Below, piece after piece: positions 14,574-64,000 of a DNA stretch of 64,000 nucleotides (the stretch's first letter is position 1; every line of letters starts with the position of its first letter). The notes under the pieces are model-generated. The model did not search any database, was not told the DNA's origin, and worked only from the letters and a program-made list of their open reading frames with translations. Made by a program: the position numbers and the translations under genes. The stretch comes from an uncultured Gammaproteobacteria bacterium (GTDB lineage Bacteria; Patescibacteriota; Patescibacteriia; UBA9570; XYC2-FULL-38-9), in assembly GCA_964344485.1 (NCBI GenBank), contig CAYFNF010000003.1:148467-212466 (forward strand), written 5' to 3'.

Positions 14574-14670
14574 ATATATTGTTTCAGTCCGCGTGCCAGG
14601 TCAGCCGACCAGAGCAAAGGACGCCTCTGTACAATAAAAGGCTTTGATTGTCCAGTCAAGCGCTGAGAAG

Positions 14671-17600: not shown

Positions 17601-18210
17601 CATCAATCACTTCTCTTGCACTCTCTCGTGCTGAACCCAAACTACGACGTCCTTGTCGCGATGAAACACCCTGGTCTGTTTGCAGATCTGCAACTGCTTC
17701 ACGAATGAGCTCCACAATGCGTTCATGTGCTTGCAATTGCGCTACTGCACGTTTGTGTGCTCTACTACATGTTCTGACCAACCAATGTGCTCCTGATAAC
17801 TGACGGGTACGAGCCTGCATCGCTCCGCTTATAACTGCAAGATTGCTTTCAAACGTACGTTCAAACGGCAATTCCACCACAGTAACGTCATACATGCTTA
17901 AGGTGTCAAGTGCTATCTCCTCCCATTCTGTTAAGAATTGAGCGTACTCCTGCTCTATTGCCTGCAATTCCTGTTCGAGCGCTTCTAGGCTTGCTTCAAG
18001 GTGCGCGTTCATTTCATCGTAACTCTCGCCTTGGAATACTTCACGTGCAGCAAGTAGTTCTTCTACACGCTGAGCCACTCCTTCTATGCGTTGCTGCACC
18101 CCTTGAAATCGTTCAAGCATAGCTCTGCCACGTTCAACAAACTGCTCATGATGTTCATGGTACTGAGCCTCTATTGGTGTTTGGTGATTTTCGCGAATAG
18201 GTGCATTCAT
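14671..18210 (-). CDS. Giant hypothetical protein (1179 aa), acidic and helical, with no signal peptide
   Basis: Uninterrupted ORF whose ATG lies 4 nt after the stop of the 1849-aa gene. The only hint is one HEAT/PBS-lyase-like stretch (DLGKLGNPKAIEPLLEHI). No TM segments. Confidence 0.75.
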   Translation of the reverse strand: MNAPIRENHQTPIEAQYHEHHEQFVERGRAMLERFQGVQQRIEGVAQRVEELLAAREVFQGESYDEMNAHLEASLEALEQELQAIEQEYAQFLTEWEEIALDTLSMYDVTVVELPFERTFESNLAVISGAMQARTRQLSGAHWLVRTCSRAHKRAVAQLQAHERIVELIREAVADLQTDQGVSSRQGRRSLGSARESAREVIDDRLYAEAQQRTAEIVEQQEQLYALAGSTELHDRINARLREMHIQPIVDELLERHPGLEPQIRQWEQAVVALLTNDGNSRHPDDLRIGGERVQTFNGWEDRAGRALTDEFPRRPGDRFMMLHDRDRELRRAVEWAPSDIDRSNWENPNQQTRNLLRLFADWRAHRDFNREVVPYDRPTAAIKHQRRSLRDDAIQHVGNNDELIKILRGTQRIRLLRDDPEVAAIATDEEFEEFEEFLIETLMRDMIRPGGRESGHGTDAAMDLGKLGNPKAIEPLLEHIFYAGSGHTTVLIFSIIRRLAQSEEGRAHLEAMPGIERALIAQMVDEDSVLYQETSDVYGRTRLLSKGEFFVARAQLADLFSDTEVPEMFSFMDMPERSAFVAGLLPDGTSVGILLRQREEVERRVLEARDMTPWWTIHGLTAALAANPEFMEQIGQEAIGQEEGDAMDNFRRLLAHKKVRRSHQSRGILLQGFLRMRAQGEQGAAVLQDMMQRYRDTRDDPRRVREMFRSFEMLERFGCMEYDYDPTERLEAIRAALANIELILPRLDPPTRKAIRTRRRALIKEEQELTGLVGPTEHYRDRVATVLTDRLGVSAEIGHAIADNIDAHDRSGFLDMSTTLLLSFEAKKVDDPVEALRSVIEHHVVGDFASWKYTHECAEDQIGFLGDQREHWIETEDAVQVERSDEEQDLLEQQRSAALGLLDDADAHFAEFTADRTDDDAVTAIARQLAAVREQLTATPLERGAVLRMAMRLQQQCEAASLHQVASDVNQLYRPFTVSEVGTVTAEEFDDELRMIRLGTEPSETCQSWKRGAYNECLLSYVVDANKKGINVRGEEGEILLRCVERITQIRETNTEGEHPTLFLEPAYKTIDHPRVYQAFAQLAFNKAESCGASVSITPHVWCEQALQAFYEEAARRGATVRGDTEENKGEERDMYIARTQNEYQYSDSFGGKLSDYNTYRRAAIMEFVLPSAEQASE

Positions 18211-23832: not shown

Positions 23833-26800
23833 TTATGCAGCAGCAGCTGGCGGCTCGGGTTGCTGACGATGTCGATGATGGCTGAACCATGCTATACCAA
23901 CTAAGAATATAATGACGATTCCAATGTTAATCATCACCAGCATGGTGGTGCTTGAGAGGCGATTCTTCTCTTCAATCACAAACCGCGTGATCTCGACCTG
24001 GTCAGATTTCACACCGTTTACTTCGGTTTGAGCAAAAACGACGTGATCTCCTTCACCGAGCAACTCTGCTGGAACCGTAATACTCCATTTACCGTTGGTG
24101 TCTACTTGCGCGACTTTTACTAATGGGTCTGAATAGATCGTCAGAATTGCCACAGCAGACATCTCTCTATACTGCTCAGCAATCTCTCCGGAGATAGTAA
24201 TCTCGTTCTTCTGTTCTTCGACTGTGCCGCCGAATAATCGTCTTGTTGCATCAATAATATCCCACTGCTGAACTTGCGTATAGGTGACGGTCCCATCATC
24301 TGATACCGTCGGTTCGATTGTAGTGCTATCTTGCTGGAACTCTATATCCGCAGTGTCTTGCAGCTGTCCAGTCTCGGTGGTCTGCAATTCTTCTCTTTGC
24401 TGCTTGGTCAGCGGCACGACTTCATCTGTATATGTATACGGATTCTCTGGCGGTTGTTTGACTCCATCCTCAGCATATTGTGTTTTTATTAGCTCTTCAA
24501 ATTTCTTTACGTTCACTACAACCACATCTGGAAGGCCGGTGTCGGTTGAACCCCCTTGGATTGGGTTGGTGCCGTACTTCACTTCATCACTATCTGATAC
24601 GCCGTCGTCATCAGAATCCGTGTCTGTTGGGTCAGAACCCAAATCCACTTCGTCGGAATCGCTTACCCCATCTTGATCTGAGTCCGCGTCTTCTGGATCA
24701 GTACCTAGCTCTTTCTCTTGTTCATCAGTCAGGCCGTCTCCGTCACTATCGGTCTCAGCTGGCTCGGTGTCAGTTCCTTGGTCAGGGCCTGGGTCTGTGC
24801 CCTGGCTCGGATCGCCGGTGTCAGTGTCTGGAGTATCAGTAGAAGGAGTTTCTTGAGGGGTGGCAGGGGCTACGGGTACGCTCACAGGAGCACTTACTGG
24901 TGCTGACACAGTAAAGGTGATTTCATTCGAAGTAGTCTCTGGATAGCCAGCTTGTTCAGAAGTGACAGCGTATGCAGTATGCGTGCCTGTAGATAGTGCA
25001 GATGGACGACATGCAACAGAGCTGGTCTCTCCACCACCAGTTGCAGTAGTATCGCAAATTCTCTGCCCATCAACATAGATTTGGGTATAAGCACCAGTAC
25101 GTGCTAATAGAGTAATCCATGGTCGGTTATATGATGTCTGCGCGTCCACCACAACTTGTTGCATCACTGCTGCAGGGTATGGGGTTGCGCGTACAATAGT
25201 CTGTGGAGTAAATACCTTTATCACAGTATCTTTTTTCGTATTCACGACCTTTACCTTGATCGCATTCGCTCCAATTGATAGTGCGGTGGTTGGTGTGCCC
25301 TGATATGAAATCACTGGACCAGTGTCGCTGGTAATAGCAGCAGTTCCGCTCAACGTACCGTTTACGAACAGTTGTACTGCAACATCATCCACTGAGATAT
25401 TTCCGATATAGACGTTACCGAAAAAGACCGGGTTCTTACTAAACGTCACATTCGAAGTCAATTTACTTCGCTCCTCTTTTGGATAGATATGAAATCGATC
25501 TGACACTACAGAAGATCCGACCGTATACCGGACACTGGATGTCTTTCCCACATTCCCTTTCTTATCTTCGATATTTGCCTCAGACGTATGTTTGTCGTAA
25601 TTCTTCTGGATCTGCGAATCTACCTCCCATTCTCCTTGCGCGTCTGTGGTGTCAGAACCGTCTAACTCACCTTCGGTATATACAGAAACTTCAGACTCTG
25701 TTTCAGCAGTTCCACTAAATGAAACGTATTGGTTGTAAACAATGTCATTTTGTTCTGGCTCTTCGATTACTGCTGCAGGCGGGCCGATTGAGAAACTCGC
25801 GGTCTTCTCCCACTCTGTGGAGCTGGATCTACTAGCGGTCTTCACTTTTGTGTACAGCTCCCAGAGTCCGCGCTTCAGTGTAAACTCTGTTTCTGCTGTG
25901 CCGTTACTGCCGACCTGTTCTTCATTGATCTTCTCTGCGCCGTTCTTTACGCGCACAAATTTAAACACCACCCACTGGCCAGTGGTTCCGGTTGCTGATA
26001 GCTCTACCTTCAGACGACCGGTATCCTCCTGTGCACTCAGTCGATGTACGCTCGAAGGATCACTTCGCAACTGCTCTCCATTTACTGTTAGTGCGGTGGG
26101 TAACAGTGATGACGCTGATCCTTCCTGTGTAGTGAATGAGTCTACTGAAGAGTTCGATGTATTACTACTCGCATCCGCGCTCACTACCTGATAGTAATAT
26201 GTAGTGCTGCTTAAAAGCCCTGATACAGTCACTGAATGGCTCTTTGTTAATCCACTAGTTGTTTGTGACTGCGGAATTTGCTCAGTCTTTCCATATCGTA
26301 CTTGTGATGTTGCTTTTTCATTCGTGGTCCAAGTAATAACCGCGGATGTAGAACGGCGAGTGACTTGAATATCTGAAATAGTGGGCGCCGAAAGGTCTCC
26401 AGTATCTGTGGTTGGGATTACTGACCCTGAAGTAAACTGAGATGTATTGTTTGATGAGTCTGTTAGCGTTGCAGTGACTTTATAGTTAGAAGCATATGAT
26501 TCTAGAGTGCTCTTGGGAACATCAACGCTCCATGTTAAACTCGTGACCGCTGCTTCTGTTATATAGACCTCGCCTTCATTATTCCGGTCTACAAAGACCT
26601 CCACTGTTCCGTCACTAGATGCAGTACCCGAGACAGTGTATGTATCTCCTTGCAAAGAAATTGCACTGATCACTGGGGTAGCAAGCCCCTCATTTGCTCC
26701 ATCAATTAGATTAATTCCACTTGAGGAGTTGTTATAGATAGAATTCTGTGTTACTAAATTGTATTTAGTTCCACTTTGAGAGATGTTCAATCCATCTGCA

Positions 26801-29202
26801 TAGGCGTTAGTAACTATGTTGCCCGGTCCAATGGTGTTGCTCTGACTAGTATTGGAGAGTGTTACTGCGTTCCACTGACACGGAAGCGGATCACCGTTTG
26901 TATCGATGCCGATCCTGTTTGATGAGAGAGTATTGTTTGAAGAGTCAGCAAATACCACACAGCGGTCTATATTGCCGATCACATTATCACTAATGGTGTT
27001 CCCAGTGCTGTTCGCTCGAATGATAATTCCATATACGTCATCCTGAGTAACAGGTTTCGTGATACCAATCCTATTACTGGAAATCACATTATTAATTCCA
27101 CCTTGCATTAGAATGTTCATGACATTGCCCGCAATAGTGTTGCTACCATTGATAGTGTTAGAACTGCCAGTGAGTTCAAGGCCGACAGCATTCTGCATCA
27201 CCGTTTGTTTACTCACTGCGAGGCCAATAGTATTCCCAGTGGCGGTGTTACTGTCTCCTTCAATCCATAACCCCACGCCGCTATGGTTAGAGATGAAATT
27301 CGTAGATATAGAATTACTATCGCTTTCAGTATCAATCACAAGACCGTTTGTGGTGTTTCCGATATTCGTATCACTTGCAGATACACCGATGTAGTTATCT
27401 GAGAGTGTGTTTGAATCAGAGGAATAGATAGCAATGCCCGATTCATTAAAACCAATGACATTAGATTGCGATGTTCCAATTCTACTATTTGATACTCCAG
27501 TAAATAGAATTCCGGTTCCAGTGTTCCCTCGATCGACTAGTGAAGCGTTGGTTCCAATATAATTACCCTCTATCGCTAGCTGAGAGATGTTTCCTGCGCT
27601 GCTATTTGCCTCAATACCATTTGATAGATTTCCAGAGATAGTATTCTTCGAAATCGATACCGCATTCGCGCTAATGGCAATAGAGATGCCATCCTCACCA
27701 TTCGAAACCGCTGCTCCACTTGAATCCAATCCAATAGTATTCTCAGTTATTGTGACATCGCTATCGTTTTCCAAGTAAATCCCATTTGCATCATTTCCTG
27801 AAATCACGTTATTCGGACCAATCGTTGTGTCTGCCCCACCAAAGATTCCGTCAGTATTTGGAATGGCTGTTCCAGAACTGTTTAATCCAATATAGTTCCC
27901 GGTGATTGTTCCAGTGCTCTGGTTCACTACTACCCCTGACTGGGTATTACCTGCAATAGTGTTGTTCGAAAGTGTATTCGCTCCTTGAAATGTTACACCG
28001 TTATTATTTTCAACTGCGCTCGTGCCGTTACTATCTACTCCGATATTATTCTTATTCACCGTGTTCCCAGATGTAGTTGCTTCTAAGAAGATACCTGACT
28101 TTGTATTGCCTGAAATTGTATTGCCAACGATCGTGTTATTGTTTCCGGTTACTCGAATACCTGAATCCCCATTAGTGGATTTTGTGGAACCGTCTGCAGT
28201 TATACCTATATAGTTCAAACCGATAGTACTGCTACTGCCTCGCAATTCAATTCCGTTGCTCGTATTTCCAGAGATGATATTGCGGAACGCTTGGTTGCTG
28301 CTATCTCCAATAGTGATGCCAGATACCGTCGCTGCTATATTAACTCCGTTTATCCCATTAGCGGTGATAGTGTTAGAACGCAATACATTAGTATTTGAAT
28401 TCTCGATAAAATTCACTCCCTGCTCAGAATTATTCGATATCGAGTTACCGGTTACCGTGGTGCTGGTTGCAGTGCCCCCAAAATAGATTCCGTTACGATT
28501 GCCTTTGATTGTGTTGCCTGAAATGGCATTATTACTCGATGCGACCTGAATGCCTTCACCCCCTGCAAAGCCTTCTATCGTGAAATTTGATATCTGACAA
28601 TTATCCGCTCGGATAGCTAGCCCATCATTATCTTGAGCTGCTGACAGCGCGCTCCCTTCAATGCCAACTCTGTTATCCCCATCGATTATAAGTTCATCAG
28701 TAATCGCGGGTAGCACACTTGAGGTTACTGCTATCTTTCCGTTTAATGAACTATTGAAACTGATCACGTCAGCACCAAGACTCGCGTTTGCATCGAGTAT
28801 AGCTTGCCGCAAAGATCCCGCACCGCTGTCATTCAAGTTTGACACAGTGAAATTAGCAGCATACGCGACTTTGATCTGATTCACCGGTAGCACTACAGAT
28901 GAAATTGCATACAAGAGAATAACCACTGCAACAAAGAACGCGGTGACTAACCCGCTGCGTAGTCGTATCTTTTTTCTGCGACTGTGATGCTCATGATACG
29001 AAAAACCCCAGATCCCTTTATGGTCTTGGTCATATAATGTACAGAATGTGTGCTGAGGTGGATAGAAAATGATATAGAAATATTCGTACAGCACGTATGC
29101 TATATATAGTGGAACGAGCGCAATGCCTAAAAGGACACGAATAATGAACGGTCGGGGTTTGGCTTGTACGTAGCACTCAATATGATTGATGGTTTTTTTC
29201 AT
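23833..29202 (-). CDS. Giant cell-surface protein (1789 aa): parallel beta-helix repeats, FN3, Ig-like regions, TSP3-type Ca-binding repeats and a C-terminal TM anchor
   Basis: The N-terminus has hydrophobic anchors. About 750 aa of (I/V)xGNxIxxN repeats (SGNTISGN, IAGNT...) match the NosD/CASH beta-helix type. The FN3-like stretch is APTISDIQVTRRSTSAVITWTTNEKATSQVRYG. The TSP3 repeats read DSDGDGLTDEQE, DSDQDGVSDSDE and DSDDDGVSDSDE. The C-terminal TM is MLVMINIGIVIIFLVGIAWF. Confidence 0.85.
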   Translation of the reverse strand: MKKTINHIECYVQAKPRPFIIRVLLGIALVPLYIAYVLYEYFYIIFYPPQHTFCTLYDQDHKGIWGFSYHEHHSRRKKIRLRSGLVTAFFVAVVILLYAISSVVLPVNQIKVAYAANFTVSNLNDSGAGSLRQAILDANASLGADVISFNSSLNGKIAVTSSVLPAITDELIIDGDNRVGIEGSALSAAQDNDGLAIRADNCQISNFTIEGFAGGEGIQVASSNNAISGNTIKGNRNGIYFGGTATSTTVTGNSISNNSEQGVNFIENSNTNVLRSNTITANGINGVNIAATVSGITIGDSSNQAFRNIISGNTSNGIELRGSSSTIGLNYIGITADGSTKSTNGDSGIRVTGNNNTIVGNTISGNTKSGIFLEATTSGNTVNKNNIGVDSNGTSAVENNNGVTFQGANTLSNNTIAGNTQSGVVVNQSTGTITGNYIGLNSSGTAIPNTDGIFGGADTTIGPNNVISGNDANGIYLENDSDVTITENTIGLDSSGAAVSNGEDGISIAISANAVSISKNTISGNLSNGIEANSSAGNISQLAIEGNYIGTNASLVDRGNTGTGILFTGVSNSRIGTSQSNVIGFNESGIAIYSSDSNTLSDNYIGVSASDTNIGNTTNGLVIDTESDSNSISTNFISNHSGVGLWIEGDSNTATGNTIGLAVSKQTVMQNAVGLELTGSSNTINGSNTIAGNVMNILMQGGINNVISSNRIGITKPVTQDDVYGIIIRANSTGNTISDNVIGNIDRCVVFADSSNNTLSSNRIGIDTNGDPLPCQWNAVTLSNTSQSNTIGPGNIVTNAYADGLNISQSGTKYNLVTQNSIYNNSSSGINLIDGANEGLATPVISAISLQGDTYTVSGTASSDGTVEVFVDRNNEGEVYITEAAVTSLTWSVDVPKSTLESYASNYKVTATLTDSSNNTSQFTSGSVIPTTDTGDLSAPTISDIQVTRRSTSAVITWTTNEKATSQVRYGKTEQIPQSQTTSGLTKSHSVTVSGLLSSTTYYYQVVSADASSNTSNSSVDSFTTQEGSASSLLPTALTVNGEQLRSDPSSVHRLSAQEDTGRLKVELSATGTTGQWVVFKFVRVKNGAEKINEEQVGSNGTAETEFTLKRGLWELYTKVKTASRSSSTEWEKTASFSIGPPAAVIEEPEQNDIVYNQYVSFSGTAETESEVSVYTEGELDGSDTTDAQGEWEVDSQIQKNYDKHTSEANIEDKKGNVGKTSSVRYTVGSSVVSDRFHIYPKEERSKLTSNVTFSKNPVFFGNVYIGNISVDDVAVQLFVNGTLSGTAAITSDTGPVISYQGTPTTALSIGANAIKVKVVNTKKDTVIKVFTPQTIVRATPYPAAVMQQVVVDAQTSYNRPWITLLARTGAYTQIYVDGQRICDTTATGGGETSSVACRPSALSTGTHTAYAVTSEQAGYPETTSNEITFTVSAPVSAPVSVPVAPATPQETPSTDTPDTDTGDPSQGTDPGPDQGTDTEPAETDSDGDGLTDEQEKELGTDPEDADSDQDGVSDSDEVDLGSDPTDTDSDDDGVSDSDEVKYGTNPIQGGSTDTGLPDVVVVNVKKFEELIKTQYAEDGVKQPPENPYTYTDEVVPLTKQQREELQTTETGQLQDTADIEFQQDSTTIEPTVSDDGTVTYTQVQQWDIIDATRRLFGGTVEEQKNEITISGEIAEQYREMSAVAILTIYSDPLVKVAQVDTNGKWSITVPAELLGEGDHVVFAQTEVNGVKSDQVEITRFVIEEKNRLSSTTMLVMINIGIVIIFLVGIAWFSHHRHRQQPEPPAAAA
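24582..24750 (-). repeat. Three thrombospondin type-3-like acidic calcium-binding repeats (coding)
   Basis: The DxDxDGxxDxxE motif is repeated three times in the translated sequence of the giant surface protein. Confidence 0.6.
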
Positions 29203-37601: not shown

Positions 37602-40544
37602 TTACCAATCACACGTGGACAACGTTGCGGTTGCCTGTAAATTACCCGACGAATCAATATAGATACAGTGTAATTGACTGTCTTGCCCGTATATATACAA
37701 CCCTCTGCTCACATGAGTAGCATCATGCCCGAATCCTGATCCAGTTGCTCGTCTCGTCAACTCTCCGCCAATATGCATGGTCCACATATACGTAGCATCA
37801 AATACTATGCCCCCTGGAATCTGGCCAGGAATCATACCAATGCCTTTAGCGGTTTCTTTCGAAATATCAAATATTGCCGTACCGTACCCTCCGGCTCCGC
37901 CACCACCTGCAAAAATAATCCAGATGTTAGCTCCATCAAACGCGACATCTACTGGCTTAGTTAGTCCTGTTGATGCGAGACTAAAGGTTCGGAAGTTGTT
38001 GGTCTTAGTATGCAGTTGAATTAATTCATTATTTGCTGCACTAGCAATCCAGAGATACTGTCCGTCATACGCCATCCGTTCTAACGACCCAGCTTCAAAC
38101 CCTGATATGACTGTATCCACTGCCATGGTGTCAATATTAATCTTAATCACCTGACCATTCGGTTTATCAATAGCCCAAATAAAACCATTAGCAAAGATCA
38201 TATCGATAATACGACCAAACCCACCTGCGACCACTTGAAAATTACTACCACCCCAATTCACATACCCAATCTGGCCCGCAACATTCCCTGCCCATATGCG
38301 AGCGTATTGATCATGTGTGGAACTCACTGGCTGCCCAAGTCCAGAAATAGTCGTCGTTGTTGCCGTATCATCTCGTAGTTGCACTTTTTTAATCTGATTG
38401 CTTGAACACAATATATAGATAGTTTCATCACGCAGCACCATGGTACGACAAGTGATCTCAGTAAAGTCATAATCCAATACTTTTCTCTTATCCACTGCGT
38501 TGTATCGATAGAGCCAGTCACCGGTAAGCACCCATACATCAGATCCATCAAACAACATGTCATCTACATTATTAGAAGTTCCTAGGCTCGTATTTCCTGC
38601 ATCCACATATGCATTCTGGTAGATACCGTCCCCGGAGTTTTCATTTGGATAGAACTGCCCGCCGATGAACTCTGCCTCACCTATAACCATGCCGGTATTT
38701 GCATGTAGTGCTAAGCCGAATTCATCCACTTTAATAATGACTCCTGATCCTTTATTCGACATATCCACCTGTATACCAGTTGCTGTCTCACCGCCTGCTT
38801 CGACACGTATACCGTATTTATCCGTTGTTGATGTTGTTGTATGAGTGTTTTGCGCGAGAAGTGCTGTAGAATTAGACCCATCAGACGTAAACCACCCACC
38901 GTATCCAGCAGTAGCAAACGTGGATGTGCCTACGACTCCGGCCCCTCCGCTTCCTGTCGAGGATCCAAATACCGCGTGTTCATTCACACTGATAGCATGA
39001 ACTGCTGTGTTATCAGTGGAATAGCCGAACACACCATGCTCGGTGTCACCGGTACCGATTACTGCTGATCCGTCAGCCACAATTGCCGTGACTGTTGCTG
39101 GGTCGATGTTATGAACGGTTGAAACTATACCGTAGCCTGGGCTTGAAGTGCTCACTGCTGTATTCTTCACTGTCAACACAATATCATTCTGCAACTGATC
39201 TTCCATATAGACCTTTGCAGTAAAATTTCCTGAGTAGGTTGGCCCACCAAGATACGCACAATTCGATGTCTGGTTACACATCACACCTCCATAATACGTC
39301 GTAGCATCCGCGGAGTTTGCGTATAACCCGTAATTTAACTCACTATGTGCAACAACTCCCATGTCTGAATTACCAGCACCATATACTCCTGCCCCACCTG
39401 CGGTGGATTCAGCATACCCAACCACACCGTAGGTTGAATCACTTAGTCCGAGCACTCCTTCACTTCCAGAGGTCGGGAACGACGCAGCTGGTACAGGTAC
39501 TGAACCCGAAACTGACCCTGAATCTGAACGTAATCCAATACCTCCAGCGGTATTACTGACCAGCACTGAAGCGTCTGGACTAGTTACGGCACTAGAAAAA
39601 GTTCCTGCAGGTCCTGTTCCTGTACTTGATGCTACTCCAGTTGCACCGGTTGTTCCTTTGACATTTACTCCTGTATGCGCTCCATCAACAAACACCTCTA
39701 ATGCATCAGCGACAGTAATAGGCGCAGCGCCGTCACCAATAGCCGCGGGGCCTTGAATAAATGCTGCATGGCTGGGATTTCCTAAGTCTGTATAATGGCC
39801 AGATGTCGTATTTTCTGCGTGCACTGCTACACCAGTATCAGAAGTAGTATACACTCCATCCGCGCCGCTCGTACCAACCGCGTATATACCTTTATAAGAG
39901 CCGTCGACATACACGGATAGACCGTCTGCAGTAGTAATCGGTGTGCTCCCTGAACCTATAGCTCCAGGGCCGCTTAAGTACGCAGCATGCGCAGGTGTAC
40001 TGAGATCGATAGAATATGATGATGTGGTGTTATTTGCAAAGATTGCTGGCGCTGAACCAGAAGCAGTAATTACCGACATGCCTGGACCGGCTCCGTCTTG
40101 TTGAATCTGAACTCCATTCACCCATGAATTCGTCACCACAGCAATGGCATTAGTTCCAGAGTCTTGGTGGTCGATATTTAACGACTCTCCTGAGGTGGTT
40201 ATAATTGCTATCTCCCCGTTGCCTGTACCAATAGATGGATCAATAAATAGATCTACTGCGGTTGCAGCTTGCTGTACAGCCAAGGTATTTTCCAACACCG
40301 TAGTTCCAACCACTGTTAATGAATCACCGAGTGTGAGTGGGCCTGCTTTGGTTTGCGCTGCAGTAGAGAGGTTAATTGGTGCTGAAACATTGCAAGATGC
40401 GTGTGTTGGCCCGTCTACATCAGGGTCACATGTAGGCTGATTCCAGGCTGCACGCGCATAAGGCGCAACAAGAAACATACAGAGAGAAATAACAAAAAAA
40501 CCAGTGAAATACTGCGAAAATCGTGTTATAAACTCTGTTTTCAT
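37602..40544 (-). CDS. Large secreted protein (~980 aa): tail-fibre-like N-terminus, G/S/T/A-rich repeats and a C-terminal beta-propeller-like repeat region
   Basis: Signal/anchor FFVISLCMFLVAPYARA followed by AWNQPTCDP...APINLSTAAQTKAGPLTLG. The centre has repeated blocks (...SGHYTDLGNPSHAAFIQGPAAIGDGAAPITVADALEVFVDG... and a near-copy). The C-terminus has DG..(L/I/V)W(I/V) propeller-type repeats. The start is set at M17 because the first 16 codons overlap the divergent promoter of the 40605 gene. Confidence 0.75.
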   Translation of the reverse strand: MKTEFITRFSQYFTGFFVISLCMFLVAPYARAAWNQPTCDPDVDGPTHASCNVSAPINLSTAAQTKAGPLTLGDSLTVVGTTVLENTLAVQQAATAVDLFIDPSIGTGNGEIAIITTSGESLNIDHQDSGTNAIAVVTNSWVNGVQIQQDGAGPGMSVITASGSAPAIFANNTTSSYSIDLSTPAHAAYLSGPGAIGSGSTPITTADGLSVYVDGSYKGIYAVGTSGADGVYTTSDTGVAVHAENTTSGHYTDLGNPSHAAFIQGPAAIGDGAAPITVADALEVFVDGAHTGVNVKGTTGATGVASSTGTGPAGTFSSAVTSPDASVLVSNTAGGIGLRSDSGSVSGSVPVPAASFPTSGSEGVLGLSDSTYGVVGYAESTAGGAGVYGAGNSDMGVVAHSELNYGLYANSADATTYYGGVMCNQTSNCAYLGGPTYSGNFTAKVYMEDQLQNDIVLTVKNTAVSTSSPGYGIVSTVHNIDPATVTAIVADGSAVIGTGDTEHGVFGYSTDNTAVHAISVNEHAVFGSSTGSGGAGVVGTSTFATAGYGGWFTSDGSNSTALLAQNTHTTTSTTDKYGIRVEAGGETATGIQVDMSNKGSGVIIKVDEFGLALHANTGMVIGEAEFIGGQFYPNENSGDGIYQNAYVDAGNTSLGTSNNVDDMLFDGSDVWVLTGDWLYRYNAVDKRKVLDYDFTEITCRTMVLRDETIYILCSSNQIKKVQLRDDTATTTTISGLGQPVSSTHDQYARIWAGNVAGQIGYVNWGGSNFQVVAGGFGRIIDMIFANGFIWAIDKPNGQVIKINIDTMAVDTVISGFEAGSLERMAYDGQYLWIASAANNELIQLHTKTNNFRTFSLASTGLTKPVDVAFDGANIWIIFAGGGGAGGYGTAIFDISKETAKGIGMIPGQIPGGIVFDATYMWTMHIGGELTRRATGSGFGHDATHVSRGLYIYGQDSQLHCIYIDSSGNLQATATLSTCDW

Positions 40545-40549
40545 TTCGT

Positions 40550-40578
40550 TGACGGTTAGGCCATTTTTAGTATATAAT
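40550..40578 (+). promoter_or_regulatory. Candidate promoter TTGACG-(17/18)-TATAAT for the 40605 gene
   Basis: TTGACG at 40550-40555 and TATAAT at 40573-40578, about 26 nt upstream of the ATG. Confidence 0.35.
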
Positions 40579-40604
40579 ATCAACACATTCATCGCAATAG
40601 CACT

Positions 40605-46822: not shown

Positions 46823-46825
46823 GTG

Positions 46826-46899
46826 TGTCCCCGGCACGATTTGAACGTGCGACCTCCGGTACCGCAAACCGACGCTCTATCCAACTGAGCTACGGGGAC
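46826..46899 (-). tRNA. tRNA-Arg (anticodon GCG)
   Basis: A 74-nt cloverleaf: GTCCCCG/TA/GCTC-AGTTGGATA-GAGC/G/TCGGT-TTGCGGT-ACCGG/AGGTC/GCACG-TTCAAAT-CGTGC/CGGGGAC/A. Confidence 0.85.
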
Positions 46900-47811: not shown

Positions 47812-47903
47812 GGAGAGGTGGCTGAGTGGTTGAAAGCGACGGATTGCTAATCCGTTATATCGGTATTTAGCCGGTATCGAGGGTTCAAATCCCTCCCTCT
47901 CCG
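47812..47903 (+). tRNA. tRNA-Ser (anticodon GCT)
   Basis: A 92-nt class II tRNA: GGAGAGG/TG/GCT-GAGTGGTTGAA-AGC/G/ACGGA-TTGCTAA-TCCGT/23-nt variable arm/GAGGG-TTCAAAT-CCCTC/CCTCTCC/G. Confidence 0.9.
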
Positions 47904-47927
47904 CAGGACCGATTTTTTTGTACGTCT

Positions 47928-48014
47928 GGAGAGATGACAGAGCGGTCGAATGTGACGGTCTTGAAAACCGTTGGGCCTTCACGGGTCCCGTGGGTTCGAA
48001 TCCCACTCTCTCCG
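47928..48014 (+). tRNA. tRNA-Ser (anticodon TGA)
   Basis: An 87-nt class II tRNA: GGAGAGA/TG/ACA-GAGCGGTCGAA-TGT/G/ACGGT-CTTGAAA-ACCGT/18-nt variable arm/GTGGG-TTCGAAT-CCCAC/TCTCTCC/G. Confidence 0.9.
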
Positions 48015-48015
48015 C

Positions 48016-51209: not shown

Positions 51210-52427
51210 ATGGTTGATCGAATCACCAAGGTCACGCGCACTGGGTACGGATCGCGTGTGGGCCAGTCTATTGGCGGCGTTCTTATTGGACTGCTGCTAT
51301 TTGTCGCGTCGTTCGTTGTGCTCTACTGGAACGAAGGCCGGCAAGACATGTCTCTGATTGCAGCAACTGCAACTGAGATTGAAGCAGAGACAGCAAACCA
51401 AGACGCTTCATTGGATGGAACGCTCGTTTCTCTCACCGGAACACTTTCCACCGATGAAACACTTGGCGATGACTTTCTTGTTGCTGGCGACTATATCGCT
51501 GTCAAACGAACTGTCGAGATGTATGCATGGGAAGAGTCCACGTCCAGCGAAACGCACACAGAGACTGGTGGTTCTGAGACAACCGAAACTACATACGAGT
51601 ACGACACAGTATGGACAGAGACACCTGCTGACTCAGATGACTTTGAGTACTCAGGGAGTTACTATAATCCAACTAAGGAGATTGAAAGCGTCACAAAAAC
51701 TGTTACTGACGCAAAAGTAGGTGTATATGCTGTAGATGCAGACGATGCAGAACTGCCAGGTTTTGATGAGGTATCACTTTCAGAAGACAACACGTATATC
51801 CTAGATACAGCTGCTGACCTCTATTGGGAAGATCCGCTATACGACACCTATTATGAATACGGGGATCAAGCACTATCTAGTTCATACATCTACATTGGAT
51901 ACGGCACATTAGATAACCCAACGGTCGGAGACTATCGTATCAGCTACTCCGTGCTACCAGCTGGTGAAGATGTGACGGCATTCGGAGAACTAGATGGAAC
52001 AAAAGTAGCAAGCTACACAGATGAAGACGGTAACACCTTATATCGCTTGTTTGACGGCTCTCGTGAAGAAGCAATTGCAACACTACACACCGAACATGTG
52101 ACTTCTACATGGATCTTACGTGTAGTTGGATTCTTCATGATGTGGATTGGACTCGCAGCTGTGTTTGGGCCAGTAAGCACGGTACTCTCCTTTATTCCAT
52201 TCCTTGGCAAGCTCAGCAAGAGTTTAATCGGGGTAGTAGCATTTGTCGTAGCGCTTGTACTGTCAGTGCTTACCATTGTTATCTCCATGATCCTACACAG
52301 CGTTGTCGCACTGATTATTATCGGTATTCTCGTACTTGCTGGAGTCGTGCTCATTGTTATGGGATATAAGAAAAAGAAAGGTGAAACTCCACCTGCATCC
52401 CCTCCATCTCCGGAGCCTACTCAATAA
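51210..52427 (+). CDS. TMEM43/DUF1625 family membrane protein
   Basis: The N-terminus reads ..SRVGQSIGGVLIGLLLFVASFVVLYWNEGR (the WNEGR signature after TM1). A large acidic loop is followed by three C-terminal TM segments. Confidence 0.6.
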   Translation: MVDRITKVTRTGYGSRVGQSIGGVLIGLLLFVASFVVLYWNEGRQDMSLIAATATEIEAETANQDASLDGTLVSLTGTLSTDETLGDDFLVAGDYIAVKRTVEMYAWEESTSSETHTETGGSETTETTYEYDTVWTETPADSDDFEYSGSYYNPTKEIESVTKTVTDAKVGVYAVDADDAELPGFDEVSLSEDNTYILDTAADLYWEDPLYDTYYEYGDQALSSSYIYIGYGTLDNPTVGDYRISYSVLPAGEDVTAFGELDGTKVASYTDEDGNTLYRLFDGSREEAIATLHTEHVTSTWILRVVGFFMMWIGLAAVFGPVSTVLSFIPFLGKLSKSLIGVVAFVVALVLSVLTIVISMILHSVVALIIIGILVLAGVVLIVMGYKKKKGETPPASPPSPEPTQ

Positions 52428-57028: not shown

Positions 57029-59071
57029 ATGTCTGCATCCACACCACTATCACAGTTACACGGAGTCGGGCCTTCAATAATGAAGCGTTTGAAAGTTCTT
57101 GGCATTACCACCACACATGATTTAATGTGGCACTTTCCACGTCAGTATGAGGACCGTTCACTCATGACTGATATTATTGACGTAGAACCGGATAGCAAAG
57201 TGACTATCCACGGCACGATTGAAAAAATACAGTCACGTCAGTCGTGGAAACGTCGTATCAACCTCACTGAAGCAACTGTTACTGATACTACAGGATCTAT
57301 AAAAGCGATCTGGTTTAACCAGCCGTACGTAGCAAACACACTAAAAAAGGGGGATACAGTACAGCTCTCTGGTCAAGTAAAGAAAACCAAGTACGGAACG
57401 TCTCTGCAGAGCCCGGTCTATGAGAAAGTATTTGAAGAAAAAGATACGACGCATACTGGGCGCATTGTTCCAAAGTACTCCCTGACAAAGGGTGTAACGC
57501 AAAAGCAACTTCGGTATTTTATGAAGCAGGCGCTGGAAATAGAACTCCCGGTTGAGGATTACGTCCCTGAAGAGATACTACAGGAGTACGAATTATTTCC
57601 TTTAGCTGATGCACTGCAACATATTCACTTCCCCACTTCTGAGCAGGACTTTCTTCAAGCAAAACAACGATGTGACTTCGACTCACTCTATATCATTCAG
57701 CTCTATGCGCAGCTCCTGCGTCAAGAGTTGCAATCTCAGCAAGCCTCCAGTATCGAGTTCCAGGAACGTGCGATAAAACACTTTGTTGACGAGCTCCCGT
57801 TTACGTTAACCAATGCACAAAAGAAAGCATCATGGGCCATTCTACAGGATGTAGAGAAACAGACCCCGATGAACCGGCTGCTTATTGGAGATGTTGGATC
57901 AGGAAAAACCATAGTGGCAGCGATCGCGATGTTGAATGCAGTTTTAAATGGCGCGCAAGCTGCGCTCATGGCGCCAACAGAGATTCTAGCAAAACAGCAC
58001 TATCAGACACTACAAGAAGTATTTGACACAAAGAACATCACGATTGAATTGCTCACTGGTTCTACAAAAAACGGACCAAAGCAACAACAGCTTGAAGGGT
58101 GTGCGTCTGATATCGTTGTCGGTACACACGCGTTAATTCAAGAGAGCGTCACGTTTAACAATTTAGGTCTAGCTATAGTGGATGAGCAACATCGGTTTGG
58201 GGTAGAACAACGAAAAGCGCTGAAATACCAGTCTGGGGATGAAAAAACTGCGCCGCATCTGCTGTCCATGACCGCCACCCCGATTCCACGAACATTAGCG
58301 CTAGCATTATACGGAGACTTAGACCTCTCTATTATTGATGAACTACCGACAGGTAGAAAGCCAGTCACTACGAATCTTGTTCCCCCAAACAAGCGAGAGG
58401 ATGCATATGGATTTATCCGGGAACACCTCGACCGCGGAGAGCAGTGTTTTGTGGTCTGCCCTCTGATTGATCCTTCGGATACGCTGGAAGTCAAAGCTGT
58501 CACCACAGAGTATGAACACTTGTGCAACGAAGTGTTTCCTGAGTACCAGTTAGAGATTCTACACGGAAAGATTCAGCCACAGGAGAAAGATGATATCATG
58601 CAACGCATGCGTAATAAGGAGATCGACATCTTGGTCTCCACATCTGTTATTGAAGTTGGAGTAGATATTCCGAATGCGACAATTATCGTAATTGAAGGTG
58701 CGGACAGATTTGGATTAGCACAACTACATCAATTCCGTGGTCGAGTCGGTCGTTCTGATACACAGTCATACTGCTTGCTCTTCTCCGAATCAGATAATGA
58801 ACAGACTATTAAACGGCTACAGGTACTGACGAACACCTATGATGGATTCAAGCTTGCAGAACAAGACTTACAGCTGCGTGGAGCTGGAGAGTTCTTTGGT
58901 AAAAATCAGACCGGGTTCTCCCCATTAGCAATGCTTGCGTACCAGCAGCCACAATTACTAAACAGTGCTCGCTCAGCAGCAAAACAAACACTAGCGAAGG
59001 ATTATATCTCTTCCACGCCATTGCTAAAAAAGAAAATCACTGAATTTACAAAAAGCATCCACTTAGAGTGA
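57029..59071 (+). CDS. recG: ATP-dependent DNA helicase RecG
   Basis: Wedge/OB N-terminus, GDVGSGKT, DEQHRFG, MTATPIPRT and QLHQFRGRVGR. A TATAAT box at 57017-57022 lies 6 nt upstream of the ATG. Confidence 0.95.
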   Translation: MSASTPLSQLHGVGPSIMKRLKVLGITTTHDLMWHFPRQYEDRSLMTDIIDVEPDSKVTIHGTIEKIQSRQSWKRRINLTEATVTDTTGSIKAIWFNQPYVANTLKKGDTVQLSGQVKKTKYGTSLQSPVYEKVFEEKDTTHTGRIVPKYSLTKGVTQKQLRYFMKQALEIELPVEDYVPEEILQEYELFPLADALQHIHFPTSEQDFLQAKQRCDFDSLYIIQLYAQLLRQELQSQQASSIEFQERAIKHFVDELPFTLTNAQKKASWAILQDVEKQTPMNRLLIGDVGSGKTIVAAIAMLNAVLNGAQAALMAPTEILAKQHYQTLQEVFDTKNITIELLTGSTKNGPKQQQLEGCASDIVVGTHALIQESVTFNNLGLAIVDEQHRFGVEQRKALKYQSGDEKTAPHLLSMTATPIPRTLALALYGDLDLSIIDELPTGRKPVTTNLVPPNKREDAYGFIREHLDRGEQCFVVCPLIDPSDTLEVKAVTTEYEHLCNEVFPEYQLEILHGKIQPQEKDDIMQRMRNKEIDILVSTSVIEVGVDIPNATIIVIEGADRFGLAQLHQFRGRVGRSDTQSYCLLFSESDNEQTIKRLQVLTNTYDGFKLAEQDLQLRGAGEFFGKNQTGFSPLAMLAYQQPQLLNSARSAAKQTLAKDYISSTPLLKKKITEFTKSIHLE

Positions 59072-59094: not shown

Positions 59095-60081
59095 TTAATA
59101 TGAACAGCCGTGCCCGGTCCATTCGTAGTGCATGTAGTCTTTTACACTGCTCCAATCTCCGCCCCACATAAACCCTTCATTCTTAAACGCATTGATTAAC
59201 CAATCTGGATAGTCACAAGCGTCTGTTCCAGTAGTAGCGTTGTAGTTTGCACACATATCTGAGGAGAATTTCTCAGTGGTGTAACACGACATGGTTTTTT
59301 TACAGTTTGGATTGTTGCTCCAATTCACATCAATAGCAAAGCCGAATGAGTGATTACTGTAACACGAGGGATTGTTTACGTTTTGACGCCAGGCCCATGT
59401 TCCCGTATGACCAAATTCAATATCATATTGAGATGACGGGTGACCGTAATTATATGCAGCTATGGTTGCAAATGCATTTTCAAACGCGAGCTGTGCATCT
59501 TTATGGACTGCAAGTGTTTTTGCATGGTCGTCCACTCCATCATCAACCGTAATGCGCACTAAGTAATTTGTGTCCACGTAATCCTTATCAAATAAATTCT
59601 CATACTTTCCTGCTAGGCAGGTCTGCATACCACTTGTACAGTTGCTAGGATCACCATCTGCCATAAATGACAGTTCTGGTACGTCAATATCTCCATAGAT
59701 AGTAAATGTTGGACTGATCATATTAATGATAGTCCACGAAAGAAGTGCGATAACCAAACCGATCAGTGCATTCGTAATACGATCCTTCCCTTCGGATACT
59801 TTCTCTTTATTTCCAGCTGCTAGCGCCCATTGCGCACCACCAAAGATTATCATCCCTACTGCAACAATCGCGATACCGCTCACCAAGAACTGGTACATTG
59901 CAGCAAGATAGTTTGGCAGATACGGTTCAGTAATATTCTGCAGTACTCCAAGGCCAACTTCTAGTTTGATCACCGCCGCTGAGACTACCATAGGAAACGC
60001 TCCACAAAAAGCCATCACAGTCGTCAGTATTCTCCGCGGAGTGAAGCGAATTGATGATGTGTGTATTGTTTTTCGAGACAT
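59095..60081 (-). CDS. Pilin-like (TrbC/VirB2-type two-helix) N-terminal module fused to an M15 family peptidoglycan peptidase domain
   Basis: The N-terminus has a signal sequence followed by YLAAMYQFLVSGIAIVAVGMIIFGGAQWALAAGNKEKVSEGKDRITNALIGLVIALLSWTIINMI. The C-terminus has SNHSFGFAIDVN (S-x-H-x-x-G-x-A-x-D) and GGDWSSVKDYMHYEW (D-x-x-H), the M15 zinc peptidase motifs. Confidence 0.7.
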   Translation of the reverse strand: MSRKTIHTSSIRFTPRRILTTVMAFCGAFPMVVSAAVIKLEVGLGVLQNITEPYLPNYLAAMYQFLVSGIAIVAVGMIIFGGAQWALAAGNKEKVSEGKDRITNALIGLVIALLSWTIINMISPTFTIYGDIDVPELSFMADGDPSNCTSGMQTCLAGKYENLFDKDYVDTNYLVRITVDDGVDDHAKTLAVHKDAQLAFENAFATIAAYNYGHPSSQYDIEFGHTGTWAWRQNVNNPSCYSNHSFGFAIDVNWSNNPNCKKTMSCYTTEKFSSDMCANYNATTGTDACDYPDWLINAFKNEGFMWGGDWSSVKDYMHYEWTGHGCSY

Positions 60082-60162
60082 GTAAAATCTCTAATCAAAT
60101 AGTGTCAATACTATTGTACAAGAAAATAGCAAAAAGTCAATCTACAATCCTCCTACACTCCC

Positions 60163-60909
60163 TTATCCCTCTTGCTGAATTTTTTCGATCTCCTGCTCTA
60201 CTAACACGCGCATCTCTTCAATCGTCTTCTCTCCAGTAACAAAAGTATCATTAATGAAGTACGATGGGGCTGAGTCAATCTGCAATGTCTTTGCAATATA
60301 GTATCCTTGTACAACGAGTTGCTTTTTTGATGTACCTGAGACGCACTCAGAAAACGTTTCAGTGTCTAAACCAATATCTTCAGCAATGGAGACCCAAGGA
60401 TTCAGAATAAACTGGTCTTGATCAAAGAATAGGAGATCATGGTACGCCCAAAAAGAATCCTGGTCTTGTGCGCAGCGTGCTGCCATAGCAGCGGTCTCAG
60501 AATTTTCATGTAATCGTGGAATTGGAAAGTCCTTCCACACATGCAAAACATCATTCGGATACTCTTGAACAATCTGCTCTATAATCGGGGACATGCGTTT
60601 ACACGCTTCACATTCAAAATCACCAAATTCAACGATAGTTACTGTTGGGCTCGCTGCGCCGCGCTGCGGATCAGTTGTTAATGGTCTGGGTGTGCTATCA
60701 CTCCCGTCAATTCCAGAGGGTACTTGAGTAATCAGCGGGTCGTACGGCATGGCACTGCCGGAGACCACCTCTCCATTGGTCGCGGTCTCAGTCCCTTGAT
60801 CAATATCTGACGCAGCATGATTTGTTACTGTAGCGCTTGCAACAAATAAAATGGCGATACAAACAGCACCGAGAACAAATATAAGAACTGCGCGGTTTTT
60901 CTTTTCCAT
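60163..60909 (-). CDS. DsbA-like thiol:disulfide oxidoreductase (membrane-anchored)
   Basis: An N-terminal TM segment and a thioredoxin fold with a CxxC active site (FGDFECEACKR). Confidence 0.75.
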   Translation of the reverse strand: MEKKNRAVLIFVLGAVCIAILFVASATVTNHAASDIDQGTETATNGEVVSGSAMPYDPLITQVPSGIDGSDSTPRPLTTDPQRGAASPTVTIVEFGDFECEACKRMSPIIEQIVQEYPNDVLHVWKDFPIPRLHENSETAAMAARCAQDQDSFWAYHDLLFFDQDQFILNPWVSIAEDIGLDTETFSECVSGTSKKQLVVQGYYIAKTLQIDSAPSYFINDTFVTGEKTIEEMRVLVEQEIEKIQQEG

Positions 60910-63322: not shown

Positions 63323-64000
63323 TTAAAAAATTGCACTAGCTATTTCATCAACTAAGGAGGTGACCCCTAGTTCTTGTAACGCAGACATGGCTTCTTGTAG
63401 ACGTCCCCAATTCCATGGGGTCATCAGAGCAACAGCTGCGCTAACAATGACTAGAGCGAAAATATATTGAGCAGCCATGGAGATGAATATCAGGAACTCT
63501 GTAAATAATAGTAGAACGAACAGAGCTTTTTGCGCCATGTCCGGCTCTTCAAACATCTTTGTAGATTTTAGGAACTGAGAGATAAAGCCCAGTACTGGGA
63601 TCTCTGGTAGTAGATAGTATCCGAAAAAATGTAGATGAATGTAAATTAGTGTTGATGGATCACAGCAACAGAGATCTTCGGGTAGAGCAATAAACATCTC
63701 CCATAACCACATGCGACTTCCTGGCTTTGCCATACTCGATGCATCTGCAGCAGCTCCAGCTGCATCTGCAGCGCCTCCAGCTGCATCTGCTGCACCGCCA
63801 GCGCCTTTTGCTCCTTGCTTGTCTTTTCCGAGTTGAGATGCTGCTCCAGCGCCTGCTGCAAGTCCAGCTCCAGCAACAGCGCCTGCTCCGGCTCCTACTG
63901 GTCCAGCAGCGGCTCCAGCGCCTGCTCCGGCTGCGGCAGCTCCACCAGCTCCAGCAGCGGCTCCTGCTCCAGCGCCTGCTCCGGCTGCGCCTGCACCCGC
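63323..64000 (-). CDS. Membrane protein with a Gly/Ala-rich N-terminal low-complexity region (5' end beyond the window)
   Basis: The frame of the 63323-63733 ORF stays open upstream to position 64000. It encodes AGAGAAGAGAGAGAAAGAGG...AADAAGGAADAAGAAADASS before the MAKPGSRMW... part, which contains TM segments. Confidence 0.55.
   Translation of the reverse strand, partial: AGAGAAGAGAGAGAAAGAGGAAAAGAGAGAAAGPVGAGAGAVAGAGLAAGAGAASQLGKDKQGAKGAGGAADAAGGAADAAGAAADASSMAKPGSRMWLWEMFIALPEDLCCCDPSTLIYIHLHFFGYYLLPEIPVLGFISQFLKSTKMFEEPDMAQKALFVLLLFTEFLIFISMAAQYIFALVIVSAAVALMTPWNWGRLQEAMSALQELGVTSLVDEIASAIF
63740..64000 (-). repeat. Coding low-complexity GC-rich repeat (GCx/GGx codons, Gly/Ala tract)
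   Basis: Degenerate reiteration of gctccagc/gcctgctcc/ggctgc units on the plus strand. Confidence 0.7.

Follow-up and report, generated by a model that had tools for sequence, protein, structure and literature searches.

A VirB2-like pilin module fused to a predicted M15 peptidoglycan peptidase in Patescibacteria

VirB2-like pilins of family PF18895, and arrays of the genes that encode them, have already been described in Patescibacteria (PMC10633639, PMC12102498, PMC12857230). The type IV secretion systems (T4SSs) of these bacteria are missing relaxase and coupling proteins, and recent reviews call their role unknown (PMC12102498, PMC11665869, PMC12857230). In addition, most Patescibacteria with VirB2 have no recognisable VirB1 (PMC12102498). 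Wall hydrolases associated with the T4SSs of monoderm bacteria are likewise already known, with PrgK of pCF10, CwlT of ICEBs1, TcpG of pCW3 and TraG of pIP501 serving as VirB1 analogues (in part after PMC12102498). Here we describe a gene of an ultra-small Patescibacteria/CPR bacterium, from a 64,000-nucleotide stretch of contig CAYFNF010000003.1 (the whole stretch is called the window below), whose product, the fusion, carries a signal peptide, a VirB2-like hairpin and a predicted M15 peptidoglycan peptidase in a single polypeptide.

The fusion resembles the described VirB2-like pilins of Patescibacteria (Wang et al. 2023, PMC10633639; Quinonero-Coronel et al. 2025, PMC12102498) in its PF18895 score, its signal peptide and its two-helix hairpin, in the virB4-locus setting of its orthologues, and in that a genome has several divergent paralogs. 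The pilins described so far are, however, small and lie in arrays of 2-11 genes, whereas the module studied here forms the N-terminal third of a 328-residue enzyme. Similarly, the orthologous loci resemble those of the monoderm T4SS hydrolases in placing a wall hydrolase downstream of virB4, and in both cases the enzyme has a membrane tether with the catalytic domain outside, which for the fusion is a prediction. The M15 domain also belongs to the same lineage as the C-terminus of VirB4-adjacent proteins of the Glucosaminidase + M15_4 and Phage_lysozyme2 + M15_4 types. In contrast, the monoderm enzymes have two catalytic domains and the fusion only one; theirs are SLT, CHAP or NlpC/P60 domains instead of M15, and they are anchored by a single transmembrane (TM) helix or a lipobox instead of a VirB2-like hairpin.

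Evolved VgrG, Hcp and PAAR proteins of type VI secretion, such as Vibrio cholerae VgrG-3 with its wall-degrading domain, and modular type IV pilins, such as PilB and PilC of Streptococcus sanguinis, follow the same concept, in which a conserved assembly module is combined with interchangeable C-terminal domains. These are unrelated families and machines, and a place for the fusion in a filament is hypothetical.

A pilin-like hairpin and an M15 peptidase domain in one protein

The gene consists of one open reading frame (ORF) of 328 amino acids (aa) that fills positions 59095 to 60081 of the minus strand exactly, with its stop codon at 59095-59097 according to the ORF list and translation, while the plus strand of the same interval has no open frame and many stops (coordinates in Table 1). 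An indexed protein search returned six orthologues with the same architecture, at 39-45% identity. The public gene call (P0001) starts at Met23 and yields a 306-aa protein, so that the charged n-region of the signal peptide is lost; judged by its fit to the homologues, the ATG at 60081 would be the better start. In the resulting signal peptide, hydropathy places the h-region at about aa 18-35, with 16 hydrophobic residues, and cleavage would occur at VSA/A.

A preliminary description of this DNA had proposed a two-helix pilin-like module with a signal sequence, and both Pfam and hydropathy bear this out. T4SS_pilin (PF18895) matches aa 70-122 with 37.4 bits (cut-off 26.6, E 2.7e-9), and two hydrophobic helices, at about aa 58-90 and 101-128, enclose a loop with four Lys/Arg; AlphaFold2 (AF2) places the helices at 55-87 and 92-122, and the segment GGAQWALAAGNKEKVSEGKDRITNAL occupies aa 81-106. 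The feature set of PF18895-type proteins, namely a signal peptide, two hydrophobic helices and a short, positively charged polar loop, is thus present in the fusion. It is nonetheless not a small stand-alone pilin of about 100-150 aa, as it has 328 residues and a domain of about 180 aa after helix 2. No hydrophobic stretch is found in the fusion past aa 135, and the positive-inside rule, together with the precedent of VirB2, would place the M15 domain outside the membrane.

The resemblance to TrbC/VirB2-type pilins, also proposed in the preliminary description, stands for PF18895 and, more distantly, for the wider family: seven of the 104 closest module relatives match TrbC at E<=1e-3, and one orthologue of the fusion is annotated with TrbC (weak), T4SS_pilin and M15_4. 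It does not stand for the fusion taken alone, which has no match to TrbC (PF04956); a paralog in the window, which carries a Cys-rich domain behind its pilin module, reaches only E 0.45 and 11.2 bits against a cut-off of 27.9. The NCBIfam model NF045849, for the Mbov_0395 pilin-like conjugal transfer protein of a Mycoplasma integrative and conjugative element, gives 30.6 bits with the fusion, below its cut-off of 40. Kinship of the module with TrbC/VirB2 is indirect but real, that of a relative and not of a scoring PF04956 member.

The C-terminal part had been assigned to the M15 peptidases, and the profile agrees, with Peptidase_M15_4 (PF13539) matching aa 238-321 at 62.5 bits (cut-off 25, E 5.8e-17). 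This is the sole hydrolase domain that Pfam gives, and no SLT, CHAP or NlpC/P60 domain was found in the fusion. Both zinc-site motifs are present, SNHSFGFAID at aa 242-251 and DYMHYEW at aa 315-321, and so is the H-x6-D...H ligand pattern of family M15, with an acidic residue three positions before the last His. On alignment, the catalytic residues are in place, since His244, Asp251, Asp315 and His318 are invariant in eight orthologues, as is Arg232, a conserved residue 12 positions upstream of His244. The domain is larger than the ~130 aa originally proposed, covering about 180 aa (aa ~148-328), and includes eight cysteines that are invariant in the orthologues (Cys148, 155, 240, 260, 266, 277, 289 and 326).

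When a profile of the eight orthologues was compared with solved structures, the matches were solely L-Ala-D-Glu (L-alanyl-D-glutamate) peptidases: Ply500 (2vo9, 5.5e-8), LysB4 (6akv, 3.4e-7) and 8q2g (0.041). These M15C peptidases have a zinc site co-linear with that of the fusion, SxHxxGxAxD ... DxxH, with H/D/H ligands and the catalytic Asp. The similarity is limited to the two active-site blocks, between which the fusion domain adds a Cys-rich insertion of about 20 aa; it also has the eight invariant Cys and no cell-wall-binding domain. Moreover, Ply500 and LysB4 are phage lysins, whereas the fusion would be a cellular membrane protein. The eight invariant cysteines, together with a DsbA-type gene directly upstream, fit a disulfide-bonded extracytoplasmic enzyme. 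Close relatives of the M15 domain also occur in metagenome-assembled genomes (MAGs) of DPANN-type archaea (Woesearchaeota, Nanoarchaeota and 'uncultured archaeon'; L005, L007, L008, L010 and L012). Peptidoglycan is absent from archaea, and these relatives are candidates for bacteria-directed enzymes.

Orthologous loci, swapped hydrolases and matched modules

Full-length fusions are rare, with six proteins in the indexed search, two of 185,579 species-representative genomes (a Patescibacteria MAG and Candidatus Kerfeldbacteria AQU-08) and two metagenome contigs. Kerfeldbacteria fall in class ABY1 in the dataset of Quinonero-Coronel et al., and ABY1 T4SS loci commonly include recG and radA (PMC12102498). 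The ABY1 loci share the layout PrgI/VirB3, TraC-like, VirB4, [pilin + Cys-rich domain], β-propeller, [DsbA], [pilin + wall hydrolase], RadA, RecG. In the Kerfeldbacteria locus (L004), the order is a 637-aa protein, PrgI (VirB3-like), a 240-aa protein, VirB4, proteins of 209 and 459 aa, the β-propeller, DsbA, the pilin-M15 fusion, RadA and a convergent RecG, with VirB4 identified by P-loop_TraG (6.5e-28), AAA_10, DUF87 and TraC_F_IV. Gene order in L036/L116 is the same, and in all of these the orthologous fusions lie about 4.5 kb downstream of VirB4. A further locus, L115, has the exact layout of the window, including the Cys-rich pilin paralog before the β-propeller, and has VirB4 upstream.

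VirB4, VirB6 and VirD4, which the preliminary description had named as the genes to look for, were not found in the 64-kb window; VirB4 is present in the orthologous loci, and homology (phmmer E 1.8e-10) connects the last ORF of the window with the C-terminal half of the L004 459-aa protein. Its counterparts are unannotated proteins of 459-544 aa that lie between VirB4 and the β-propeller-containing module (L004, L115, L116 and L121). From this homology, it is very probable that the window stops within a T4SS locus of this kind and that VirB4 follows a few kb past position 64000. The T4SS link of the fusion is thus supported by synteny with the related loci and by the homology of the terminal ORF.

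Seven anchor loci (L115-L121) were chosen via the β-propeller alone, blind to hydrolases. In six of them, VirB4 is found about 2-4 kb upstream of the anchor gene, and in six of the seven the slot after the β-propeller/DsbA is taken by a pilin-module protein that has the domain or motif of a wall hydrolase. That domain is M15_4 in L116, SLT in L117, L118 and L119, and a VanY-type M15 (SxHxxGxAxD ... EWWH) in L115 and L121, as it also is in L001. The hydrolase in the slot is therefore swapped between lineages, with M15_4, VanY-type M15 and SLT taking the same position. The Magasanikbacteria locus L117 has an additional, second pilin-module protein with VanY. Both of its proteins (11922-13691, 589 aa, SLT; 13645-15750, 701 aa, VanY) have the pilin module in mid-protein, behind an extra N-terminal domain of 250-390 aa, so that both ends of the hairpin would carry extracytoplasmic domains.

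All the VirB2-like modules in the ABY1 loci examined carry large extra domains. No short pilins were found in these loci, and no other annotated wall-hydrolase gene. A conserved ORF of about 105 aa, considered as a hidden small pilin of the ABY1 loci, was rejected, as it encodes a soluble coiled-coil protein.

The M15 lineage is also linked to VirB4 where the pilin module is missing. Among 110 loci retrieved with M15 motifs alone, irrespective of the pilin module, a VirB4 homologue precedes the M15 gene on its own strand in 33, at distances of -9 to +4464 nt. In about 20 human-gut-type contigs, VirB4 is followed directly by an anchored Glucosaminidase + M15_4 protein, and about 11 Saccharimonadia-type loci encode PrgI, a TraC-like protein, VirB4 and, after about 3 kb, an anchored Phage_lysozyme2 + M15_4 protein, in one case together with GH3. 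Many of the gut contigs are near-duplicates, so the independent cases are fewer than 33, yet they represent at least four architectures. In these VirB4-linked loci, the M15 domain is the C-terminus of hydrolases that are not fused to a pilin, and short pilin ORFs stand beside the unfused hydrolase in at least two Saccharimonadia-type loci (L014 and L009). The fused state in ABY1 and the short pilins with an unfused hydrolase in the Saccharimonadia-type loci complement each other, and this Rosetta-stone-type evidence speaks for a shared site of action. Moreover, loci in which a hydrolase follows VirB4 match a report that Candidatus Southlakia cannot do without the peptidase and lysozyme homologues encoded next downstream of virB4 (PMC12102498), the only experimental hint that such enzymes are required by the T4SS. 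In L009 (CAZFYA010000006.1, labelled uncultured Gammaproteobacteria), a Patescibacteria-type T4SS core comprises four short pilin ORFs (1376-3402) and VirB4, followed directly by a 1042-aa M15 protein; the taxonomic label of this contig may reflect mis-binning.

An exhaustive search with a profile of the pilin module gave 67,518 cluster representatives at E<=1e-3, and the best 150 of these are nearly all 195-1775 aa long. A word-indexed homologue search is insensitive here, as the fusion drew 10 matches and the module 19 short pilins. In the closest set, 103 of 104 single-module relatives match PF18895, and in about 15-20% of the 104 a wall hydrolase can be recognised, with at least five folds represented (SLT, SLT_3, SLT_2, phage lysozyme, VanY/M15, M15_4, M23 and NlpC/P60), the rest being mostly Cys-rich and unannotated. 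Two relatives, P0062 (1775 aa) and P0047 (1147 aa), have 16 and 11 tandem pilin-like hairpin modules of about 100-110 aa, with a conserved Cys before each. These would in effect be covalently concatenated VirB2-like units, and may be either genuine genes or products of read-through in gene calling.

The modules of one genome resemble each other even where their cargo differs. The fusion and the Cys-rich paralog in the window match with a phmmer E of about 1e-33 in their modules and are 73% identical over a 62-aa core (TM1-loop-TM2); for within-genome paralogs with different cargo elsewhere, the values are 85, 79, 85, 60, 63 and 60%. Over the same core, the means between genomes for the same cargo type are 52% for M15, 57% for VanY, 47% for the Cys-rich domain and 34% for SLT. 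Recent gene conversion as the source of this likeness was rejected for the window pair, which has 68% nucleotide identity, uses the same codon at only 15 of 43 identical degenerate residues and has a longest identical run of 10 nt. Since the synonymous sites are randomised and no recent conversion is seen, the similarity of the modules is held at the protein level, as would be expected if one genome's modules must fit each other or a common partner.

Neighbouring genes and other features of the window

The fusion gene is the last of a minus-strand series formed by the partial ORF at the window end, the Cys-rich pilin paralog, the 412-aa β-propeller protein and DsbA, and its 3' end lies 23 nt from the convergent recG (Table 1). 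RecG orthologues are found at the same border in L001, L004, L035, L036 and L115-L121, and DsbA is found at the equivalent position in L001, L003/L035, L004, L036/L116, L115, L117, L119 and L121. The window contains exactly two pilin modules. Little weight attaches to the promoter-like site that precedes the fusion gene, since the region shows no enrichment of such sites (7 found, 9.4 expected).

Table 1. Coordinates of the fusion gene, its domains and other features of the window.
Feature	Position	Strand	Remarks and basis
Whole fusion gene	59095..60081	-	Signal peptide + VirB2-like (PF18895) hairpin + M15 peptidoglycan peptidase; ORF list, translation, Pfam
Predicted Sec signal peptide, aa 1-35	59977..60081	-	n-region MSRKTIHTSSIRFTPRR, charge +5; h-region ILTTVMAFCGAFPMVV; c-region VSA/A; hydropathy, charge count, homologue alignment
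Pilin-like module, aa 36-128	59698..59976	-	LEV.(I/L)G strand motif, TM helix 1, Lys/Arg loop AAGNKEKVSEGKDR, TM helix 2; PF18895
Extracytoplasmic (predicted) M15 (LAS-type) zinc peptidase domain, aa 148-328	59098..59640	-	Peptidase_M15_4 match, 8 invariant Cys
Zinc-site block 1, SNHSFGFAID	59329..59358	-	His244 and Asp251 predicted Zn ligands; aligns with SNHNYGVAVD of Ply500 and LysB4
Zinc-site block 2, KDYMHYEW	59119..59142	-	Asp315 predicted catalytic, His318 predicted third Zn ligand; aligns with KDYPHFE of Ply500 and LysB4
Promoter-like site TTGACT-16-TACAAT	60113..60140	-	In the 81-nt gap upstream of the fusion gene; consensus scan, 10/12 matches
DsbA-like thiol:disulfide oxidoreductase, N-terminal anchor	60163..60909	-	Directly upstream of fusion; Thioredoxin_4 5.5e-22, DSBA 3.3e-11
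Membrane-anchored β-propeller protein, 412 aa	60913..62151	-	Most conserved module member; AF2 pLDDT 91
Pilin-module paralog with Cys-rich C-terminal domain, 381 aa	62172..63317	-	PF18895 34.0 bits; 33 Cys in aa 130-381
3' part of a longer gene running off the window end	63323..64000	-	Ala/Gly-rich low-complexity region, then C-terminal hydrophobic segments
RecG helicase	57029..59071	+	Convergent with fusion; conserved downstream border of ABY1-type T4SS locus
Five tRNA genes	9101-9173, 14488-14573, 46825-46899, 47812-47904, 47928-48015		

The β-propeller protein is found in every related locus examined, and its family is far commoner than the fusion, with at least 154 homologues, Kerfeldbacteria and Magasanikbacteria included, and 36-70% identity among the 120 matches listed. 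Its AF2 model (predicted local distance difference test, pLDDT, 91) consists of a TM helix at aa 5-31 and an all-β domain, for which Foldseek gives TolB, tricorn and WD40-type propellers at E ~1e-10, a generic TolB/WD40-like match; a sequence search against the PDB gave none. The C-terminus of the Cys-rich pilin paralog is made of about six repeats of roughly C-x6-C-x5-6-C-x~8-C, with no Pfam match. In L115 and L121, orthologues of 415 aa and of 458 aa with 46 Cys, respectively, take the corresponding place. The Cys-rich C-terminus may be a domain for binding or adhesion that is knotted by disulfides. At the window end, the ORF list has 136 aa counted from the first ATG, which probably represent just the tail of the longer gene.

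The large ORFs of the window encode PPDK, pyruvate kinase, ClpB, RecG, DnaG, sigma-70 and some giant surface-type proteins. Four giant ORFs, in what is a small-genome organism, lie on the minus strand at 18215-23764, 23833-29202, 14671-18210 and 37602-40592. Among their products, one of 1849 aa has an N-terminal Peptidase_M48 and a C-terminal ABC1 kinase-like domain, one of 1789 aa combines β-helix/NosD, TSP3 repeats and a purple-acid-phosphatase N domain, and those of 1179 and 996 aa have no family assignment. The plus-strand ORF at 51210-52427 strongly matches the TMEM43 family (PF07787, E 3.9e-55), otherwise familiar chiefly from the nuclear envelope of eukaryotes. The five tRNA genes are those for Asn, Ser-GGA, Arg-GCG, Ser-GCT and Ser-TGA, and two of the Ser tRNA genes adjoin.

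Function and significance of the fusion

The protein had been read in the preliminary description as a device for locally breaching peptidoglycan, and this is still the best-supported reading. In the version that we favour, and to which we would give an even chance, the fusion is the dedicated wall hydrolase of an ABY1-class T4SS, comparable to VirB1, PrgK, CwlT or TcpG, which uses the VirB2-like hairpin as a tether and cuts the producer's own wall. In this scenario, the signal peptide would direct the protein to Sec export, and the two helices would form a membrane hairpin with the Lys/Arg loop inside and both ends outside, leaving the M15 domain outside. The charge distribution, the VirB2 precedent, the eight invariant Cys and the adjacent DsbA all point to this topology, and DsbA may then oxidise the cysteines of the M15 domain. 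The VirB2-like module would act as a genome-matched handle that brings the enzyme and the Cys-rich paralog to the same T4SS assembly, as suggested by synteny, cargo swapping and the co-evolution of modules within genomes. The zinc peptidase would cut stem peptides beside the machine, probably at the L-Ala-D-Glu bond by analogy with Ply500 and LysB4, and this would open the cell's own wall for assembly of the T4SS conduit, as VirB1, PrgK, CwlT and TcpG do in other T4SSs. The joined module, the swapped hydrolase folds and the lack of a free pilin point, as Rosetta-stone-type evidence, to a common place of action for pilin-like modules and wall cleavage.

Several points weigh against this assignment. 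VirB4 is not in the window, and the T4SS linkage of the fusion comes from synteny in related loci. Two loci, L035 and L117, carry the β-propeller, DsbA and fusion together without VirB4 within 8-10 kb, so that this set of genes is not obligatorily T4SS-adjacent, and L120 has no hydrolase gene in the slot. By sequence comparison, the M15 domain is not homologous to the canonical VirB1, which is SLT or CHAP. The structural model of the full fusion is poor (pLDDT 59, built on an alignment of six sequences), and a Foldseek comparison with the PDB gave helical-bundle noise with no match at E<=1e-3, leaving the LAS fold a prediction. Finally, the data would fit action on a host's wall as well as on the producer's own, and an outward-facing role directed at a host could be suggested just as well by the varied cargo and by the Cys-rich paralog.

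Such a role is the strongest of the alternatives, possible in our view although clearly less probable than a hydrolase for the producer's own wall. The VirB2-like modules would here polymerise into, or cap, a T4SS filament and carry their C-terminal domains outward, in the manner of an 'evolved pilin', with the Cys-rich domain as an adhesin and the M15 or SLT domain drilling the wall of an attached host for nutrient or DNA uptake or for effector delivery. In the F pilus, both termini of the VirB2/TraA subunits lie at the outer surface, so a C-terminal cargo could be displayed. The ABY1 loci favour this idea, as every VirB2-like protein in them has a large extracytoplasmic domain and none is a short pilin. 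In addition, delivery or co-assembly domains typically show such swapping of cargo on a handle that is conserved per genome, the within-genome match of the modules, in which recent gene conversion has no part, is what would be expected of subunits that pack together, and the relatives of the module, where they lack one of the wall hydrolases found in about 15-20% of the 104, are mostly Cys-rich. The Patescibacteria T4SS is moreover essential for epibiotic growth (PMC12102498, PMC11665869). Against this, no filament of any Patescibacteria T4SS has been shown so far, and a domain of about 20 kDa on each subunit would be sterically demanding, with a linker of just ~20 aa. No immunity or self-protection gene is adjacent either, RadA or RecG being the downstream gene, and the unfused M15 relatives are ordinary membrane-anchored T4SS hydrolases, which in known systems act at the producer's envelope.

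We consider it unlikely that the fusion is a T4SS-independent, housekeeping peptidase for wall remodelling in growth, division or turnover, which would work with the β-propeller and DsbA and use a pilin-derived hairpin as a mere anchor. The trio without a nearby VirB4 in L035 and L117 would suit this explanation, as would the flanking RadA and RecG, which are housekeeping genes, the TolB-like β-propeller, TolB being an envelope-maintenance protein, and the promoter-like site directly upstream, which suggests that separate expression of the fusion gene is possible. However, the module scores as a member of PF18895, 33 of the 110 independently retrieved loci link the M15 lineage to VirB4, and the trio directly follows VirB4 in six of the seven anchor-selected loci. 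An interchangeable hydrolase fold, peptidase or lytic transglycosylase, also suits hole-making better than a specific maturation step. Least credible of all is a prophage endolysin remnant or a secreted antibacterial toxin with an immunity protein, which we rejected on genomic context: although the nearest solved structures are the catalytic domains of the phage endolysins Ply500 and LysB4, and M15 domains are frequent in endolysins and interbacterial effectors, there are no phage genes around the fusion but a chromosomal housekeeping context (DnaG, sigma-70, PPDK, pyruvate kinase, ClpB and RecG), synteny is conserved across lineages at 36-45% identity, no small immunity-like gene lies between the fusion and RecG in the window or RadA in the orthologues, and a two-helix membrane hairpin is no feature of endolysins.

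In the literature searched, which comprised papers available without subscription, we found no description of a covalent pilin-hydrolase fusion or of a fixed slot for it at the end of the ABY1 T4SS locus, nor of the swapping of hydrolase folds, the lack of free pilins or the matching of modules within genomes. M15 peptidases and pilin-hydrolase fusions are unmentioned in the portions of PMC10633639 and PMC12102498 that were searched, and the terms M15 and SLT were not found in the supplements of PMC12102498, one file of which was covered in part. The co-occurrence of the pilin and M15 domains is visible in precomputed Pfam annotations. The related protein P0003 is named just 'M15 family metallopeptidase', with its pilin module left unannotated, and since public names are only this or 'hypothetical', T4SS surveys would score a plain VirB2 or miss the hydrolase.

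Two puzzles are on record for these systems, namely the presence of VirB2-like pilins in machines of monoderm type and a VirB1 hydrolase that is unrecognisable in most genomes. The fusion class links both, as the VirB2-like module and the wall hydrolase form a single molecule in ABY1, a large class, and this suggests that, in at least one class, the hydrolase function is built into VirB2-like proteins. It is also tempting, if more tentative, to propose that the VirB2-like hairpin of ABY1 is a modular carrier, whose genome-matched paralogs would co-assemble in a T4SS filament or stalk and display Cys-rich binders together with M15, VanY or SLT hydrolases, so that the machine would attach to the host wall and perforate it. 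If this doubtful but attractive proposal is true, it would provide a concrete function for the essential, relaxase-less T4SS of Patescibacteria, and it would be the first case of 'evolved pilins' in type IV secretion.

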